From Bacteroidota bacterium (GTDB taxonomy: Bacteria > Bacteroidota > Bacteroidia > UBA4408): 64,000 nucleotides of DNA. Made by a program: the position numbers and the translations under genes. How positions within the stretch are numbered: the first letter of the stretch is position 1; the number at the start of each line of letters is the position of its first letter. The notes below the pieces were generated by a model. That model saw only the letters and a program-made list of their open reading frames with translations. It was not told where the DNA came from and searched no databases. The DNA lies in contig JAZKHE010000002.1 of NCBI GenBank assembly GCA_040385525.1, positions 969,786 through 1,033,785 of the forward strand, read 5' to 3'. Below, in pieces: positions 43,733 through 50,836 of this stretch.

Positions 43733-46198
43733 ATGAAAAAATATATACATACAATCATTTTATTTTTTGTTACTACATTTTCTGCTTTTGCACAAGAAAG
43801 TATGACTTTGTATAACATGCAATCAATTCCGCAATCAAATTATTTAAACCCAGCTAACATGCCTTTAAGTAAGGTAAATATTGGCTTGCCAGGAATATCA
43901 TCTAATTATTTTAGTGTAAATAATAACGGATTTAGATATAGTGATATGGTGAAAAAACGCGACGATGATTCATTATATTTTGATGTAGAAGATTGGTTAA
44001 GCAAATTAAAAAAGAACAACGATTTAAATGTTAATTCGCAAATTGATTTATTCTCTTTAGGTATAAAAGTAAAAAAACATTACTTCTCTCTTAACCTTAC
44101 AGAGAAACTTAATTTTAGATTTCGCTACCCAAAAGATTTTTTCAATTTTGTGGTTTTAGGAAATGGTGCATTTTTAGACCAAACACTTAATTTTAATTTT
44201 GGTGTAGAAGCAATGCACTACCGCGAGTTAGGATTAAATTATTCGCAACAAGTAAACGATAAATTATCTGTTGGTGGTAGATTAAAAGTGCTATATGGTT
44301 ACGAAAATGTTCACACCAAACAATCAGACATAACACTTTATACCGACCCAAGTTATTTTGATATCACGGCATCATCAAACATAAACATACAAACTTCTGG
44401 AATTGATACTTCATCTTTTTCTGATTTAGAAGTGAAAAATTATTTACAGAAAAAGAAAAATAGAGGAGCTGCTATCGATTTAGGCGCTAATTATAAATTA
44501 AACGATAAACTATCATTTTCGGCTAGTTTGTTAGACGTTGGCGCTATAAATTGGAAAACCGACAACGTAAATTATGTTAACAAAAATGCAAACGCATCTT
44601 TTACTTTTACGGGTGTTGATTTTAATACATTTATAAACGATACTATTAATTGGGAAACTGCTGGCGAAAAGTTAACCGATTCTATTGTAGGTACTTTTCA
44701 AATTGAAAGTAAAAGAGGCGTAGCATACAAAACTTGGTTGCCAATGCAAATGTATTTAAATGCGAATTACCATTTAAATGTAAAAAATAAAGTTAGCGCA
44801 ACATTGTATAATCAATTTTACGATAAAGCTCCGCACCCCGCTGCATCTATTGCTTTTACAACAAGAGCTGGTCGTTGGGCAAGTGCATCAGTAAGTTATA
44901 CAGCAGCACACCGTAGCTTTAATAATATAGGTTTTGGTTTCTCATTAAACTTGGGTCCAGTTCAATTATATACAGTTGCCGATAATGTGTTTGCATTAAT
45001 TAAACCACAACACACAAAAAACTTTAATGTTAGAATGGCGCTTAATTTAACTTTTGGCAGAGATCATATTGATAGAGATAGAGATGGTGTGCCAGATAAA
45101 AAAGACGATTGTCCAGATGTTAAAGGTTTGGTTCAGTTTAATGGTTGCCCAGATGGAGATGGCGATGGTGTTATCGATTTAAAAGATAACTGTCCAGACA
45201 TTGCTGGTTTAGCAGAATTTAGTGGTTGCCCAGATAGAGATGGCGATAAAGTTATCGATAGTCAAGATGTGTGTCCTGATGTAGCTGGCGATAAAGATTT
45301 AAACGGTTGCCCAGATAAAGATGGAGATAAAATTATTGATGAAAAAGATAAATGTCCTGATGTTGCAGGTATAAAAGAATTTGAGGGTTGCCCAGATAAA
45401 GATGGTGATAAGATTATCGACAGCGATGATGAGTGTCCGGAACTTGCTGGTATTGCTCAGTTTAAAGGTTGTCCTGATACTGATGGAGACGGAATAAAAG
45501 ATTCTGAAGATATTTGTCCAGATAGACCTGGAACGTTAGAAAAACGTGGTTGCCCAATTGATAGATTATTAATTTTGGATGAAACAGGAAAAGTAATTGC
45601 AATAGCAGTTAAAAACGAAGAAGGATTTTTTGTATTTGAAAAACTTCCAGACGTAGCGAGTTTTATTTACAAATTAGAAGGTACTGATACCGACTTCAAC
45701 AACATGAAAATTAAGTTTACAGAAGGTGGCGAAGCTAAGTTGGAAAAAAATGCAAACGGAACATTTAGTTTCAAAAAACTTTCGCAAGATTATAATACAC
45801 TTACTCAGTTACCTGAAGAAGATGCAACAGTTTTATTGAAAAAAGAAGAAGAAGAAATTATTAAAAAAGCATTTGATAATTTAGAGTTCAACACGGGTAA
45901 AGCTATTATCAATCCAAACTCATTGCCGTCGTTAACCGACTTAGCAGGCTTGTTAAAATCTAAACCAGATTGGAGAATTCGTATCTCAGGCCATACCGAT
46001 AATGTAGGTAATGCAAAAGCAAACTTAACTTTATCTAAAGGAAGAGCCGAAGCCGTTAAAAAATATTTGGTAAGCAAAGGTGTAAATGTTAATGCAGTTT
46101 TAGTAAACTACTATGGCGGAACAGAGCCAATAGCTGATAATGCAACCGAAGAAGGTCGTCAGAAAAACCGACGTGTAGAAATGAAGATTATTGATTAA
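43733..46198 (+). CDS. OM barrel (DUF5723-like) + thrombospondin type 3 repeats + OmpA-like domain
   Basis: Signal peptide, YLNPA, YRELGL, IDLGANY; DxDxDG...CP repeats; GHTDNVG, NLTLSKGRA, NRRVE. Confidence 0.88.
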   Translation: MKKYIHTIILFFVTTFSAFAQESMTLYNMQSIPQSNYLNPANMPLSKVNIGLPGISSNYFSVNNNGFRYSDMVKKRDDDSLYFDVEDWLSKLKKNNDLNVNSQIDLFSLGIKVKKHYFSLNLTEKLNFRFRYPKDFFNFVVLGNGAFLDQTLNFNFGVEAMHYRELGLNYSQQVNDKLSVGGRLKVLYGYENVHTKQSDITLYTDPSYFDITASSNINIQTSGIDTSSFSDLEVKNYLQKKKNRGAAIDLGANYKLNDKLSFSASLLDVGAINWKTDNVNYVNKNANASFTFTGVDFNTFINDTINWETAGEKLTDSIVGTFQIESKRGVAYKTWLPMQMYLNANYHLNVKNKVSATLYNQFYDKAPHPAASIAFTTRAGRWASASVSYTAAHRSFNNIGFGFSLNLGPVQLYTVADNVFALIKPQHTKNFNVRMALNLTFGRDHIDRDRDGVPDKKDDCPDVKGLVQFNGCPDGDGDGVIDLKDNCPDIAGLAEFSGCPDRDGDKVIDSQDVCPDVAGDKDLNGCPDKDGDKIIDEKDKCPDVAGIKEFEGCPDKDGDKIIDSDDECPELAGIAQFKGCPDTDGDGIKDSEDICPDRPGTLEKRGCPIDRLLILDETGKVIAIAVKNEEGFFVFEKLPDVASFIYKLEGTDTDFNNMKIKFTEGGEAKLEKNANGTFSFKKLSQDYNTLTQLPEEDATVLLKKEEEEIIKKAFDNLEFNTGKAIINPNSLPSLTDLAGLLKSKPDWRIRISGHTDNVGNAKANLTLSKGRAEAVKKYLVSKGVNVNAVLVNYYGGTEPIADNATEEGRQKNRRVEMKIID
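45071..45556 (+). repeat. Six 81-bp (27-aa) TSP3 Ca-binding coding repeats
   Basis: Six units of the form DxDxDxxxDxxDxCPxxxGxxxxxGCP. Confidence 0.92.
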
Positions 46199-46568: not shown

Positions 46569-47930
46569 ATGAGTTTACAATTACTTCAAAAATATAATGT
46601 AGCAGGTCCGCGCTACACTAGTTACCCAACAGTTCCGTATTGGGATACAGAGGCGCCAAATCAAACACAATGGGCAAACCATGTAAAACAGCAATTTGTA
46701 GCCAGTAATAAAAAAGAAGGTATTAGCCTTTACATACATTTACCTTTTTGCGAAAGTTTATGCACGTATTGTGGTTGTAATACCAGAATCACAGTTAATC
46801 ACGCTGTTGAAAAACCTTATATAGATGCACTTTTAAAAGAATGGAAAATGTATTTTTCGTTGTTTAACGAAAAACCAAACATTGCAGAAATACATTTGGG
46901 TGGCGGAACTCCAACATTTTTTCAACCAGAAAATCTGCAACTATTATTATCGCAAATAATAAATGATTGCACCATTTTACCAACTGCAGAATTAAGTTTC
47001 GAAGGTCACCCCAACAACACAACTGCCGAGCATTTACAAGTGTTGTACAATTTAGGTTTTAGAAGAGTTAGTTTTGGAATACAAGATTTTGACGATAAAG
47101 TACAGCAGATTATTAATCGTGTTCAGCCTTATAAAAATGTTAAACACGTTGTAGAAAAAGCAAGAGAAATTGGCTACACATCAATTAATTTTGATTTAGT
47201 TTATGGTTTGCCATTGCAAACTCAACAAAGTATACAACAAACCGTTGAAATGGTTTGCGAATTGAACCCAGATAGAATTGCTTTTTATAGTTATGCGCAT
47301 GTGCCATGGATAAAACCAGGACAAAGAAAATATACCGAAAAAGATTTGCCTGTTGGTGAAGAAAAAAGAAAATTGTATGAGTTGGGTTTAAGCCTTTTCG
47401 AAAAAAATAATTTTGTTGAAGTAGGTATGGATCACTTTGCTAAAACAGATGATGCTTTATATGTTGCTATGCAAAACAAAAAATTGCATCGTAATTTTAT
47501 GGGCTACACCACAGCAACTTCTAAATTAATGATAGGCTTGGGAGTTTCATCTATTAGCGATTCGTGGACAGCCTTTGCGCAAAATACAAAAGTGGTAGAA
47601 GAGTATTATAAAATGGTAGATGAAGGAAATTTCCCTTTAATAAAAAATCATTTTTTAACTAAAGAAGATGAGGTAATACGCAAGCATATTTTAAAAATAA
47701 TGTGTAATTATTCTACATCATGGAATTGTTTGTGTGAGCAAACACCAGCTTTGTTTGATGCATTGCCTAGATTAAACGAAATGGAAAATGATGGTTTAAT
47801 TACCATTAGCAACAATACACTAAACGTTACAGAAGCAGGTAAACCATTTATACGCAATGTGTGTATGGCTTTTGATGCAAGATTATGGCGAAATGTACCC
47901 AAAACACAATTGTTTAGTTCAGTGGTGTAA
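46569..47930 (+). CDS. hemN: Oxygen-independent coproporphyrinogen III oxidase
   Basis: GPRYTSYP, YIHLPFCESLCTYCGC, GGGTP, LHRNFMGY. Confidence 0.97.
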   Translation: MSLQLLQKYNVAGPRYTSYPTVPYWDTEAPNQTQWANHVKQQFVASNKKEGISLYIHLPFCESLCTYCGCNTRITVNHAVEKPYIDALLKEWKMYFSLFNEKPNIAEIHLGGGTPTFFQPENLQLLLSQIINDCTILPTAELSFEGHPNNTTAEHLQVLYNLGFRRVSFGIQDFDDKVQQIINRVQPYKNVKHVVEKAREIGYTSINFDLVYGLPLQTQQSIQQTVEMVCELNPDRIAFYSYAHVPWIKPGQRKYTEKDLPVGEEKRKLYELGLSLFEKNNFVEVGMDHFAKTDDALYVAMQNKKLHRNFMGYTTATSKLMIGLGVSSISDSWTAFAQNTKVVEEYYKMVDEGNFPLIKNHFLTKEDEVIRKHILKIMCNYSTSWNCLCEQTPALFDALPRLNEMENDGLITISNNTLNVTEAGKPFIRNVCMAFDARLWRNVPKTQLFSSVV

Positions 47931-48021
47931 ATTTCGCATTTGCGAAACCGTGTTTTAAAACAGTATGTGGTTTGCTTTTTGCAAACACATAGGCAACAAA
48001 AGGAGCTAGGACTAAATAATT

Positions 48022-48155
48022 TTATAACGGTTTCGGGCTAAGCGCTGAGCGGGTTTGCGGAGTGCCAAACTTTCAACCTACTACAAACTTACAAAAGAAA
48101 AATGAACTACAAAATTTGAATTGAACACCCGCTTTGCGCTTAGCCCGTGTTAAGC
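48022..48155 (-). mobile_element. attC-like recombination site
   Basis: Minus strand runs GCTTAAC (RYYYAAC) ... GTTATAA; 12-bp perfect arm 48034-48045/48136-48147 and 7-bp arm 48048-48054/48127-48133; 134 bp; overlaps the ORF stop. Confidence 0.75.
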
Positions 48156-49015
48156 GTTGACTTTTTTCTTTCGGTAAGTCGTCTCAATAAATAGTTTGCA
48201 AAGACAATTGAAATGTGATATCTAAATGAAGAATCGTCTTCGTCTGAAAGACCTGGATGTGAACCATCAGGATGTAATCTTGTCCAAAGTCCATATACAA
48301 AAGAGTCCGAATCTTTGTCGCTTGGGTATTCATTAAGGTCTTTACTTAAAAATGGAGGATTTGCTGTCTCTGCTAGTGTTTTTATGGCTTGTGCTGCTGT
48401 TACTGTTTGATTACCGGGCAATAGAAAATTATTTATTTCTGTCAATATAGATTCAATAAATGTTCTGAATTGTGAATTTGCACTTGCCCAATTACCCTGA
48501 GAATGATTTAAAATTGCTTGATTTAAGTGTCCTTTACTAACCTGAAAATTGTACTTGTCAATTGCTATAAAGAGTTCAGATTCCGTTTTTGCCTCTTCAA
48601 TTTCAGCAGGTAGAAGTTTCTTGATTGCTCGCCCTTCTACAATATAGCCGTCACGCTTCAAATTATGCCCAAGTTCTTGATTGTGACTTACAAAAGCATT
48701 ATTAAAATTTATTGAAAATTCATGTGCATTATCCCACTCTTTTGTCCTGCTTTCATAAAGTGGTCTTTTGTCAAAAAAATCGTCAATTATGTATTGAAGA
48801 AAATCCAATTGAATATCATTAGTAAATGGGCCTTTTTTTGTTTCAGGATAATATCTTAGTTCATTAAATATTTTTGTTGTTTTGGACATTACGGTATTCT
48901 TTTCTCCAAGTGGAATTGGAGTGAAGTTAAAAATGGAAACAATTCTATTAACTTCTGGGTGTGTTAGCGTGTCGGCTAGTTTAATTAATTCAAGAAGAGT
49001 TTTTGTGGAAAGCAT
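48140..49015 (-). CDS. Hypothetical protein, possible HEPN/Abi_C-like C-terminal domain
   Basis: Helical C-terminus HLNQAI...ANSQFRTFIESIL...RLHPDGSHPG (Rx6H). The ORF is solid; the function is inferred. Confidence 0.6.
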   Translation of the reverse strand: MLSTKTLLELIKLADTLTHPEVNRIVSIFNFTPIPLGEKNTVMSKTTKIFNELRYYPETKKGPFTNDIQLDFLQYIIDDFFDKRPLYESRTKEWDNAHEFSINFNNAFVSHNQELGHNLKRDGYIVEGRAIKKLLPAEIEEAKTESELFIAIDKYNFQVSKGHLNQAILNHSQGNWASANSQFRTFIESILTEINNFLLPGNQTVTAAQAIKTLAETANPPFLSKDLNEYPSDKDSDSFVYGLWTRLHPDGSHPGLSDEDDSSFRYHISIVFANYLLRRLTERKKSTLNTG

Positions 49016-49098
49016 AGTTTAATGTTTTTATACGGAAGTCTGAAAGTTTGCGCCTAACTTGTATATATGCGCCATAAAGTAGCGTTTATTTATTTTAC

Positions 49099-49129
49099 CA
49101 AATATATACTTTTCTTATAATAAATCAAA
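49099..49129 (-). promoter_or_regulatory. Bacteroidota sigma-A promoter facing the cassette
   Basis: TTTG (49129-49126), 19-nt spacer, TATATTTG (49106-49099). Confidence 0.65.
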
Positions 49130-49154
49130 TGCTAGTTTAACACAGTTTTTACTT

Positions 49155-49297
49155 TCTAAATCTAAACCCAACTTTAAATCTCCAATTCAATAATTCTCTA
49201 ACTTTAAACTTGCAACTCCCTAACTTACTAATCAAACCAATCTACTAATAAACTAATTCCCCAACTTTAAACCTTAAACTTGCAACTTTAAACTATG
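49155..49297. repeat. Degenerate 7/8-mer tandem array
   Basis: Units such as CAACTTT, AAACTTG, CTAACTTA, CTAATAAA, CTAATTCC, ending at the comM stop. Confidence 0.7.
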
Positions 49298-50836
49298 TTA
49301 CCCCGCCCAACTTTCTCTGTCTAAACTGCGATACTGAATAGCTTCAGCAATATGATTTGTTTCAATATTTTTTGAATTATCTAAATCGGCTATAGTGCGA
49401 GCTACTTTTAAAATACGGCTATAGGCTCTTGCAGAAAGCCCCAAACGTTCCATAGCAACTTTTAATAAACTAGTTCCTGCTTCGTTTAAAACACAATGTT
49501 GTTCTAATAATTTAGAACTCATTTGTGCATTGTTATAAACTCCATCAGAGCCTTTATAACGTTCAGTCTGTATGTTGCGTGCTGCAATAACTCTTTTTCT
49601 TATTTCTTCACTCGATTCTCCTTTTTTCTCATTTGATAATTCAGTAAACGGAACTGGCGTAACTTCTATATGAATATCAATTCTGTCTAACAAGGGACCA
49701 GAAATTTTATTCAAATATTTTGAAACCATACCCGGTGCACAAACACAATCTTTGTCGGGATGATTGTAATATCCACAGGGGCAAGGATTCATAGAAGCCA
49801 CCAACATAAATCCTGATGGATATTCAACCGAAAATTTTGCGCGTGCAATAGTTACACTTCTTTCTTCTAACGGTTGGCGCATTACTTCAAGCACCGTTCT
49901 TTTAAATTCGGGTAATTCATCTAAAAATAAAACGCCATTGTGTGCTAACGAAATTTCTCCTGGTTGTGGATTTCCGCCACCGCCAACAAGCGCTACATCG
50001 CTAATTGAGTGGTGTGGCGAACGAAATGGACGAACGTTAATAATAGAATTATTTTTACCCATTTTACCAGCTACCGAATGAATTTTTGTTGTTTCTAAAG
50101 CTTCATCTAACGAAAGTGGTGGTAAAATAGTTGGTAATCTTTTAGCAAGCATTGTTTTTCCTGCACCTGGTGGGCCAATCATAATAATGTTATGACCACC
50201 AGCCGCAGCAATTTCCATGGCGCGTTTAATATTTTCTTGTCCACGAACGTCTAAAAAATCAGAATCGAAATTGGTTTGTTTGTAGTAAAATTCCTTTTCT
50301 GTATCGAACGTTGTTGGGATTAAATTGTTTTTGTTTTCTAAAAAATCAATTACTTCTTGTAAAGATTCTACACCAATAATATCTAAACCTTCAACAATAG
50401 CTGCTTCAATTGCATTTTGTTTGGGTAAAATAAATCCTTTAAAATTTTCTTTTTTGGCTTGCACAGCAATTGGCAATGCACCTTTTATGGGTTGCAAACC
50501 GCCATCTAACGAAAGCTCGCCCATAATAATATATTCTTCTAATTTAGAAGATTGTATTTGTTCGGATGCAGCTAAAATGCCAATTGCTAAGGGTAAATCG
50601 TAAGCACTTCCTTCTTTGCGAATATCGGCAGGAGCCATATTAATTACTATACGCTTACCCGGTTTTTTATAACCAATTTGTTTTACCGCCGATTCAATTC
50701 GTTGTTCCGATTCTTTAACTGCATTATCGGGTAAGCCCACCAAAAAAAATTTGCTGCCAGCAGTAACGTTAACTTCTATAGTAATAGTTGTTGCACTAAT
50801 TCCATATACTGCAGAACCGAAAGTTTTTACTAACAT
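49298..50836 (-). CDS. comM: YifB/ComM Mg-chelatase-like AAA+ ATPase
   Basis: VGLPDNAVKES, GPPGAGKT, PFRSPHH, GVLFLDELPEF, NPCPCG, LLDRID. Confidence 0.95.
   Translation of the reverse strand: MLVKTFGSAVYGISATTITIEVNVTAGSKFFLVGLPDNAVKESEQRIESAVKQIGYKKPGKRIVINMAPADIRKEGSAYDLPLAIGILAASEQIQSSKLEEYIIMGELSLDGGLQPIKGALPIAVQAKKENFKGFILPKQNAIEAAIVEGLDIIGVESLQEVIDFLENKNNLIPTTFDTEKEFYYKQTNFDSDFLDVRGQENIKRAMEIAAAGGHNIIMIGPPGAGKTMLAKRLPTILPPLSLDEALETTKIHSVAGKMGKNNSIINVRPFRSPHHSISDVALVGGGGNPQPGEISLAHNGVLFLDELPEFKRTVLEVMRQPLEERSVTIARAKFSVEYPSGFMLVASMNPCPCGYYNHPDKDCVCAPGMVSKYLNKISGPLLDRIDIHIEVTPVPFTELSNEKKGESSEEIRKRVIAARNIQTERYKGSDGVYNNAQMSSKLLEQHCVLNEAGTSLLKVAMERLGLSARAYSRILKVARTIADLDNSKNIETNHIAEAIQYRSLDRESWAG

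Follow-up and report, generated by a model that had tools for sequence, protein, structure and literature searches.

The stretch analysed here, referred to as the window, comprises 64,000 nucleotides (nt) of a Bacteroidota bacterium (contig JAZKHE010000002.1 of assembly GCA_040385525.1, which consists of 12 contigs and is 93.9% complete). It holds, between comM and hemN, a single gene enclosed by short elements of the kind that delimit integron gene cassettes. The segment from 48028 to 49057 is probably an integron-type cassette docked at the G/TT core of an attI-like platform, a site of which about 13 dispersed copies, with different cargos, occur in this genome. Positions are those of the window, and elements are read on its minus strand; C2, C3, C4, C6, C8 and C9 denote contigs of the source genome (G000), L with a number denotes homolog or unit loci, X with a number denotes sequencing runs, and the slash in G/TT marks the crossover point. 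Upstream of the element lies a gene for a YifB/ComM-family Mg-chelatase-like AAA ATPase (49298..50836, minus strand; Pfam Mg_chelatase, 1.6e-96; TIGR00368, 659 bits against a cut-off of 362), and downstream, in convergent orientation, lies the gene for HemN, the oxygen-independent coproporphyrinogen III oxidase (46569..47930, plus strand; TIGR00538, 464 bits against a cut-off of 325); both are outside the element.

The first segment after comM consists of heptad repeats of the form (RGTTNNN)n, such as AGTTGCAAGTTTAAGGTTTAAAGTTGGGG (49169..49297, direct-repeat families D1-D3). The platform, a promoter-bearing attI-like repeat that is present here in its short form, occupies 49059..49168 and carries the -33 box TTTG (49129-49126), followed after 19 nt by the -7 box TATATTTG (49106-49099), which ends 40 nt before the junction G; its leader ends with ...GGCGCATATATACAA just before that G, at 49058. 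The 5' core GTTAGGC (49052..49058), in which the crossover would fall between 49058 and 49057, is separated by a 36-nt leader from the ATG at 49015 of the cargo open reading frame (ORF) P0001 (48140..49015, 291 aa, TAA at 48142-48140). Inside the last codons lies GCTTAAC (48149..48155), an R''-type box (RYYYAAC), 1 nt before the left arm of an inverted repeat whose 21-nt arms (48147-48127 and 48054-48034, 90% complementary) enclose 72 AT-rich nt. The R'' box, this 1 nt, the stem with its 72-nt loop, an AAACC spacer and the R' box GTTATAA (48028-48022) make up a 134-nt attC-like site (48022..48155), with the second crossover predicted between 48028 and 48027; the in-situ GTTATAA would be a hybrid R' box, as expected after recombination with a site that is not an attC. 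Within the loop, a promoter consensus (48084..48113; TTTG at 48113-48110, 18 nt, and TAAGTTTG at 48091-48084) is directed away from the ORF, and a "tail" repeat of about 100 nt with two small hairpins (47931..48027) fills the space from the cassette to the 3' end of hemN. The promoter, GTTAGGC, leader, ORF, GCTTAAC, arms and GTTATAA had all been listed in a first-pass annotation made from the letters alone, and each was recovered where it had been placed.

Three features exceed chance, unlike GTTRRRY: the imperfect 21-bp inverted repeat, a promoter of the Bacteroidota type, and complementarity between the 5' and 3' ends. The GTTRRRY motif alone is uninformative because it occurs at chance frequency, with 7917 sites genome-wide (1.2 per kb on each strand) and three on the minus strand of the 1367-nt interval. 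The promoter pattern TTTG-N17-21-TAnnTTTG is rare, with 339 sites on both strands in 6.5 Mb (0.05 per kb per strand). The duplex formed by the arms, which consists of 12 bp, a symmetric 3x3 internal loop and a further 6-7 bp, has a dG of -28.5 kcal/mol and a z score of -7.3 (200 shuffles), and DNA folding of the full 161 nt gives a z score of -2.67. Perfect 12-bp inverted pairs with a spacer of 30-130 nt are common (3617 genome-wide), and arms of at least 60% GC were found at only two loci, the window and C4:330430. The spacers of the window site are asymmetric (1 nt versus 5 nt), as they are in the attC sites of L023, and no T-run follows the stem.

The platform belongs to a family of repeats, to which a 17-nt insert in contigs of run X1 led the way, being a paralogous platform at C8:5814, a paralog of the left flank of the window. 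BLAST, followed by an nhmmer profile of eight copies, recovered 13 copies in the genome at E<1e-6, five of them outside the seed; the window copy (C2:1018953-1018831, window 49168-49046; E 1.6e-18) was in the seed. Common to all copies are the -33 box (A)TTTGAT, the -7 box (A)TATATTTGG, the leader, which can form alternative hairpins (a, a' and a2), and the terminal motif (G)GTATATA(C/T)AA/GTTAG, and the conservation extends through the leader up to the junction, well past the -33 and -7 boxes. An additional hairpin (about 42 nt, loop CTACCCAAAAT) places the -7 box of five copies 82-84 nt before the junction; in two copies this box lies 33-41 nt before it, and the window copy represents the short form. 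Each junction is followed by a different ORF, which starts 14-69 nt downstream, and the cargo of a platform amounts to one or two genes. The first-pass annotation had taken the cassette for a lone one, which it is not, as the genome contains at least nine further units; its suggestion of a dispersed attI/Pc-like platform is largely borne out by the 13 copies that end at the same G/TT junction ahead of different cargos, but no cognate recombinase of the kind that it invoked was identified, and the conserved receiving site adjoins no integrase in any of them.

These copies also bear on a simpler reading, in which the window holds an ordinary SALIN (one attC site without an integron-integrase), left by a one-off integrase insertion at a non-specific GTT (attG) behind a promoter, and in which the "platform" reflects only similar strong promoters and leaders and is no recombination site. 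Insertion into attG sites near promoters has been described, the assembly contains no integrase, and the 5' part of the platform is a promoter. However, the junction lies at the same spot of TATAYAA/GTTAG in about 12 copies with different cargos, a regularity not expected from random attG insertion, and the conserved sequence spans the leader up to the junction, well past the two promoter boxes. We regard an ordinary SALIN as unlikely.

Docking of cassettes at the platform makes a further prediction. The R' box of a circular cassette consists of the last G and the first bases of the linear cassette, so integron recombination at G/TT predicts that the 5' start of a unit complements the 3' box of the same unit. 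In the window, the reverse complement of CGCTTAAC fits GTTAGGCG at 7 of 8 positions, whereas the downstream GTTATAA fits by GTTA alone; this contrast had been pointed out in the first-pass annotation, and it recurs in other units, where the 5' start of the cassette is a closer match for the R'' box than the in-situ R' box is (7 of 7 units). The R'' box GCTTAAC pairs with the R' box reconstructed from the 3' G and the 5' start, GTTAGGC, as the two boxes of an attC site do. Complementarity was scored as the number of reverse-complement positions between the 9 nt that start at the junction G and a 9-mer located from -16 to +45 nt relative to the stop codon of the cargo, and on this scale the window reaches 7/9 (GTTAGGCGC with ACGCTTAAC at the 3' end of the ORF). 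Scores of 9/9 were obtained at C4:379474, C4:329724 and C6:170741 (a unit with two cargo genes, detected by a scan that took no account of the 5' word), 8/9 at C8:5787, C9:287248 and C3:60891, and 7/9 at C9:247347 and C6:240935, with lower values at C8:16646 (5/9) and C6:293109 (about 6/8) and none at C9:227729. Altogether, 9 of 12 units score 7-9 of 9, three of them 9 of 9, against a background of 2740 ORF ends in which at least 7/9 is reached by 4.5% and at least 8/9 by 0.4%; the binomial P is 1.4e-10 for 9 of 12 units at 7/9 or better and 3.5e-12 for 6 of 12 at 8/9 or better. At the four variable positions, a unit's own pairs agree at 29 of 36, cross pairs agree at a mean of 1.56 of 4, and 3 of 100,000 permutations reach the level of the own pairs, although the binomial against the background rate is preferred over this permutation test because the 3' boxes were partly selected by their match to the 5' 9-mer.

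The ends of the cassette can also be located by comparison with copies in other genomes. Nucleotide similarity extends over window 49078-48144 in L010 (86%), 49031-48148 in L088 (83%) and 49016-48148 in L089 (72%). In 9 of the 27 homolog loci inspected, a GTT core lies 20-45 nt before the start codon (GTTAGGC in L089, L090 and L023, GTTAGTC in L010, GTTGTGC in L012 and L088, GTTGGCT in L016, GTTAGCT in L092 and GTTAGAC in L024), and GTT(A/G)(G/T)nnGCAA(A)C precedes the homolog in L010, L088, L089, L090, L092, L012 and L016; the DNA upstream of these cores is unrelated from locus to locus. At the other end, the stop codon lies inside GCGCCTAAC in L010, L088 and L089, where GCCTAAC provides an R''-type box overlapping the stop codon, and the identical 9-mer lies a few nt past the stop in L012. 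L089 has a long-range covarying stem of 18-20 bp with a different sequence and ends ...CAAACC-GTTAGTA, compared with ...GAAACC-GTTATAA in the window, the two diverging thereafter; stems that vary in sequence yet pair are also found in L010, L023 and the upstream elements of L090 and L012. A 481-nt contig from the activated-sludge run X2 matches the window solely at 48025-48173 (89%), with dissimilar flanks on both sides, and pieces of the ORF with 94-98% identity occur in three other runs (X2, X3 and X5), in which comM matches are confined to the conserved P-loop region at about 80-85%. Similarity to independent copies begins at GTTAGGC (49058) and stops at AAACC-G/TTA (48028).

Two homologs from more distant hosts lie next to attC sites. 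In an Acidobacteriota metagenome-assembled genome (MAG; L024), the homolog is preceded by ...CC-GTTAGAC, and directly behind it comes an attC of 67 nt that has the canonical form (GTCTAAC ... GTTAGGC; R'' and R' are paired, and the L stem has a bulged base), a call made by our own scan and fold rather than by a curated model. In a Methanosarcinales MAG (L023), the homolog lies between two attC sites that are laid out as in the window (R'' box, 1 nt, 11-bp stem ... stem, 5 nt, GTT) and differ from each other by one compensatory pair, T:A to C:G. These comparisons support the segment from G/TTAGGC to AAACC-G/TTA as a discrete mobile cassette with the grammar of integrons. Cargo homologs in other Bacteroidota MAGs (L016, 3600-8430; L010, 1900-4540; L012, 4380-7980) were also seen in runs of small same-strand ORFs that lack Pfam matches and are surrounded by housekeeping genes, with no integrase within 6 kb. 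A comparison of the comM-hemN interval among relatives, which the first-pass annotation had proposed as a check, is uninformative: comM is present in 25 of 26 family relatives, and in none of these 25 are hemN and the SIS gene found at a distance of 1.5 kb or less from it.

The same boundaries count against an explanation that dispenses with DNA recombination altogether, in which the repeats are a promoter and leader of the regulon type, the 3' hairpin resembles a terminator, and the 9-mers pair the ends of the mRNA for stability or translational control. Both boxes would lie within the predicted transcript, one in the 5' untranslated region (UTR) and the other at or after the stop; hairpins that follow a stop codon can terminate transcription, those of the leader resemble attenuators, and no recombinase was found. 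However, the boxes mark the start and end of similarity to copies in other genomes, and homologs elsewhere lie between attC-type sites. Moreover, the loops are 72-120 nt long, the window stem is not followed by a T-run, the terminator-like hairpins that would serve hemN lie in the tail, and no Rfam family scores above its gathering threshold. Pairing between mRNA ends is therefore, on these counts, an improbable account of the locus.

The 3' elements of the units resemble each other in layout and differ in sequence. By the measure applied to attC sites, for which structure counts over sequence and the usual length is about 57-141 nt, the window element qualifies with its 21-bp stem and 134 nt. 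Long-range stems with a z score of -4 or lower were found in 4 of 10 elements: besides the window, these are C4:330414 (dG -26.1 kcal/mol, z -7.0), C6:241981 (-17.4 kcal/mol, z -4.0) and C6:169491 (-14.7 kcal/mol, z -4.3), and the stem at C8:5225 is weaker (z -2.3); loop sizes range from 72 to 120 nt. C6:241981 and C6:169491 have the inner boxes GGGCTTTGCG / CGCAAAGCCC(C)AAAAC-G/TTA in common, and C4:381069 has the left box only, a recurrence that resembles host-specific attC families. The hairpin of the window was found nowhere else in the genome by BLAST or by exact words from its arms; the C4 paralog, in which the outer arm bases differ, came from the census of inverted repeats. A strict genome scan for R'', stem and GTT returned nine sites, two of which are real, and Rfam gave nothing at E<=5 in the window region and nothing above gathering score in ten unit loci. 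Since MAFFT anchored the AAC and CGTT ends alone in an alignment of eight elements, no covariance model was built.

This variability is relevant to a third alternative, in which the units are non-autonomous, palindrome-associated elements of the IS200/IS605 type that carry passengers and are moved as single strands by Y1 (HUH) transposases. The genome has three Y1_Tnp genes (C2:46336-46680, C3:32114-32455 and C4:129624-129815), and each end of a unit has subterminal hairpins, with terminal inverted repeats being absent. In the IS200/IS605 family, both end hairpins are conserved among copies, and each guide pairs with the cleavage site beside its own hairpin. Here, in contrast, the 3' stems are unit-specific, the 3' box pairs better with the opposite end in 7 of 7 units, and the cassette occurs without the platform in other genomes, so that we consider mobilisation of this type very improbable. 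A weak promoter match resembling the platform (C3:33724-33782) was noted at a distance of 1.3 kb from the Y1 gene on C3.

The promoter in the loop and the adjoining tail are features in their own right. The -7 box of the loop promoter ends 55 nt before the G of G/TT, the paralog at C4:330414 has TATATTTG 56 nt before its G, and near-consensus -7 boxes were seen by eye 55-58 nt before GTT in the elements that precede the homologs of L012, L016 and L090. The tail occurs in three copies, at window 47931-48027, C4:330583-330684 (85%) and C9:193021-193114 (79%), with no match in 40 relatives; each copy abuts the 3' end or stop codon of a convergent gene, and two of the three (window and C4:330414) directly follow an attC-like element at G/TT. 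Ahead of the C9 copy stand GTTAGTGGT and some 40 nt with the end AAAAACTG/TTA, possibly a scar or a mini-cassette. A loop promoter within an inverted repeat looks like an inverton, or like the promoter of an RNA of about 125 nt that covers the tail, and promoter-bearing attC sites, a small RNA and an inverton-like switch may all be considered as candidates. As an explanation of the whole element, a 72-nt promoter segment inverted by a site-specific recombinase, a type of switch common in Bacteroidota, would account for the 21-bp inverted repeats around a perfect TTTG-N18-TAAGTTTG and for the -7 box distance kept in the C4:330414 paralog, but it is scarcely credible, given that neither orientation faces a coding gene in sense (the end of the ORF lies on one side, the tail and the convergent 3' end of hemN on the other), that the window contains no recombinase and the contigs no strand-changing joint, and that the complementarity of the 5' core and R'' is left unexplained.

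Further repeats were observed around the locus and elsewhere in the genome. Intergenic arrays of 4-8 in-phase GTT heptads (RGTTNNN, for example AGTTTAAAGTTGCAAGTTTAAGGTTTAAAGTTGGG) number 27 genome-wide, among them C9:101029-101084, C3:87636-87670 and C4:284512-284546, and they are not co-located with the other platform copies. An identical 20-mer, CAAGTTTAAGGTTTAAAGTT, is found at the start of an island of small ORFs in L016 (3493-3603), an unrelated locus. Just upstream of hemN, window 43733-46198 encodes an 821-aa protein with DUF5723, thrombospondin type-3 repeats and an OmpA domain.

The cargo protein P0001 has no match in Pfam, NCBIfam or PADLOC, and a Pfam search with 26 aligned members of its family revealed no shared family. 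Homologs number 298 at E<=1e-3 in a collection clustered at 90% and 406 representatives in one clustered at 50%; most are about 260-295 aa long, and the window copy is therefore full length. Their hosts are Bacteroidota, Acidobacteriota, Alpha- and Gammaproteobacteria, Bacillota and two archaeal MAGs, in a patchy distribution, and P0001 was not found in the 40 relatives; it is an accessory and mobile gene, acquired horizontally. The conserved module comprises the C-terminal 170 residues, in which R246 and H253 of the motif RLHPxGSH are invariant in the 26-sequence alignment. An AlphaFold (AF2) model with a pLDDT of 87 gave no match at E<=0.001 in a Foldseek search against the Protein Data Bank (PDB). 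VIA-align of residues 153-285 yielded HEPN proteins as best matches (1wwp, 1wol, 8xdj, 2hsb and 4nqf, Z 9.3-8.8) and many HEPN structures at Z 9.3-7, values that helical bundles readily attain by chance. On the strength of this alignment, we read the C-terminal domain (about residues 153-285) as HEPN-like and P0001 as a putative RNase; the N-terminal 135 residues have no family assignment. To HEPN RNases of toxin-antitoxin and abortive-infection systems, P0001 would be linked by its C-terminal four-helix domain and its invariant R-x6-H motif (R-x4-6-H in the HEPN fold), but it differs from them in having no Pfam HEPN match and no partner gene in the cassette.

Several cargos of the other units also look like anti-phage genes. 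Pfam recognised DnaJ, SIR2_2 and DUF5343 domains, with weak matches to HNH_2 and CarboxypepD_reg, and 6 of 11 cargos have no family; PADLOC recognised 3 of 11, namely PDC-M34A (1e-73), PDC-M68A/HNH effector (5e-36) and a ThsA-like SIR2 protein (1e-27). The unit at C6:168500-170900 (L168) encodes a 205-aa DUF5343/PDC-M34A protein and a 194-aa ORF between boxes of 9/9 complementarity, which suggests a candidate defence system that travels as one cassette. In 400 genomes of the phylum, the C4 cargo has homologs in five and the SIR2 cargo in two; these homologs are too few and too distant, and their flanks have no cassette grammar. According to one preprint (10.1101/2024.07.02.601686), defence systems are frequent among chromosomal integron cassettes, with which the defence-like cargo found here agrees.

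Taken together, these features suggest how a unit could be assembled. The mobile form would be a circular cassette that has TTAGGCGC... at its 5' end, continues with the HEPN-like cargo gene and closes with the folded attC-like site of 134 nt, whose last letters are ...AAACC-G. Through this folded site the circle would recombine with the platform core ...TATAYAA-G/TTA..., after which the cassette would start at its 5' end with the right half of the attC's R' box (TTAGnnnn) and finish at its 3' end with the R'' box (nnnnCTAAC), the two stem strands around their loop, and AAAC(C)-G. The promoter of the platform, TTTG-N19-TATATTTG, would then transcribe a cargo that is otherwise promoterless. The junction of the circle is predicted to read ...CCCGAAACC-G/TTAGGCGCAAAC, also written ...GCGCTTAGCCCGAAACC-G/TTAGGCGCAAACTTT..., and the empty platform ...TATATACAA-G/TTATAAAATT, also written ...GGCGCATATATACAA-G/TTATAAAATTATTT.... 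Catalysis would fall to an IntI-like tyrosine recombinase that the assembly lacks or, possibly, to the resident Xer-type enzymes. Observed directly are the anatomy of the element, the family of copies, the complementarity particular to each unit, the movement of this cassette between genomes and the defence-like cargo; the circular intermediate, the exact crossover point, the activity of the promoter and the nature of the catalyst are what we infer from this arrangement.

Several observations weigh against docked cassettes. The window stem has no clear bulged or extrahelical bases, and its in-situ R' box GTTATAA departs from GTTRRRY; the sister 3' elements, at 150-181 nt, exceed the usual attC range, 5 of 10 are unclear or decayed and have no convincing stem or R' box, and two have G/CT in place of G/TT. 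A structural attC scan of 20 homolog loci gave 5 matches versus 16 in reversed controls and a looser census 61 versus 39, and because real sites are not separable from reversed-sequence controls, these scanners are no evidence by themselves. The permutation test suffers from the partial selection of R'' boxes noted above, and the complementarity of the 5' and 3' UTRs could act at the RNA level. Cassette grammar is missing from 18 of the 27 homolog loci (for example L011, L013-L015, L017-L019, L091, L093 and L094), so the P0001 family is not always cassette-borne. The platform was found in this genome alone (BLASTN against the 40 relatives gave merely weak matches of 24-58 nt, and nhmmer gave no match in 151 external loci) and thus has no independent evolutionary replicate. 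The contigs of four runs, which cannot reveal rare forms, contain no joint across the cassette, inversion, excised circle, empty platform, deletion joint or insertion polymorphism. As to the enzyme, a tblastn search with three IntI proteins found no IntI within 6 kb of 91 homolog loci, the only tyrosine recombinase being a weak match in L079 (28% identity). The assembly itself has no integron integrase: the best TIGR02249 match reaches 73.5 bits per segment and 140 bits on the full Xer-like fragment, far under the cut-off of 265, and since the assembly is 93.9% complete, absence of IntI from the organism is unproven.

The recombinases that the assembly does encode are an XerD-like and an XerC-like protein, which are the only short tyrosine recombinases, a further tyrosine recombinase of 396 aa, and one serine recombinase; no tyrosine or serine recombinase lies in the window, the nearest being more than 100 kb away on C2, and the window has no Y1 transposase gene either. 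In the phylum as delimited by GTDB, IntI scores above the NCBIfam cut-off in 113 of 401 sampled genomes, almost all of other classes, with one strong match in the same class. A simple attC scan beside IntI in eight genomes of the phylum returned essentially no attC sites or arrays, and the same held for G108. A tentative extension of the docking model is a dispersed, integrase-less system with about a dozen promoter-bearing docks, each of which holds one defence-type cassette, in which some attC-like sites bear an outward promoter and the catalyst is non-classical, being either resident XerC/XerD-like or an unrecognised recombinase; this wider proposal is possible, although doubtful.

Integrons are understood as one integrase, one attI site and one array, and SALINs are thought to land at diverse sites. 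If the platforms are real recombination sites, cassette capture could be organised as many single-slot, individually expressed docks, and it may use another recombinase. The predictable junctions of the circle and of the empty site would then provide concrete, testable substrates, and a HEPN-like family of 300-400 members that has no Pfam entry would be flagged as a recurrent cassette cargo in bacterial phyla and archaea. Giving each cassette its own platform, in place of a shared array, would be a new way of organising gene capture in the class Bacteroidia; the dispersed platform hints at a way to capture and express foreign genes, which is relevant to work on integrons and on defence islands.

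Among known systems, classical integrons are the closest in grammar. Their cassettes, like that of the window, consist of a single promoterless ORF followed by an imperfect palindrome that runs from RYYYAAC to GTT, with an inferred crossover at G/TT; the 5' start complements the R'' box of the same cassette, the upstream site would provide the promoter, the cargo is accessory and defence-like, and the stems vary while they retain pairing. In contrast to the classical set of intI, attI, Pc and array, the genome has no intI in its assembly and distributes single cassettes over about 13 platforms. Further differences are the Bacteroidota-type promoter (TTTG / TAnnTTTG), the long attC-like sites (134-181 nt), two of which have an outward promoter in the loop, and extrahelical bases that are not evident. 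Xer-dependent modules, which are gene units or folded single-stranded hairpins such as the pdif modules of Acinetobacter plasmids and the folded attP of the CTX phage, recombine through XerC/XerD without a dedicated integrase. XerC/XerD-like genes are present here as well, but no dif-like 11-6-11 site was recognised at the junctions; a dif-like reading, prompted by a resemblance to GCGCATA seen by eye in two platform copies, was rejected because the spacing does not fit 11-6-11.

Elements without an integrase provide the second comparison. CALINs (attC clusters without an integron-integrase) likewise combine attC-type sites with the lack of an integrase, and relatives of the cassette in L012, L090 and L023 lie between two attC-like sites, as in such clusters; the units of the source genome, unlike these, are single and dispersed. 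SALINs, of which 3400 were counted in 21,105 genomes, with insertion at 5'-GWT-3' (Loot et al., bioRxiv 10.1101/2022.09.11.507474), consist of a coding sequence and one attC-type site, inserted at GTT, expressed from a promoter in the neighbourhood and far from any integrase or further att site. The locus agrees with this description and would be classed as a SALIN, provided that the attC call holds. The attG sites are, however, described as highly diverse (Loot et al., bioRxiv 10.1101/2022.09.11.507474), whereas here a conserved repeat is used at one position in about 12 loci. For Bacteroidetes, the IntegronFinder 2 paper mentions earlier records of In0 elements only and one complete integron in Salinibacter (10.1101/2022.02.28.482270). 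The literature searched yielded no dispersed attI-like platforms or attC-type cassettes in Bacteroidia, although the taxonomic supplements of Loot et al. and of IntegronFinder 2, which lay outside the search, could bear on this. The grammar of the cassette is already known from integrons, the lone cassette without an integrase from SALINs, and insertion at GWT near promoters from attG sites; what differs here, in an assembly without intI, is a conserved, multi-copy, promoter-bearing receiving site that is used at a fixed position and provides many single-slot attI/Pc-like docks.

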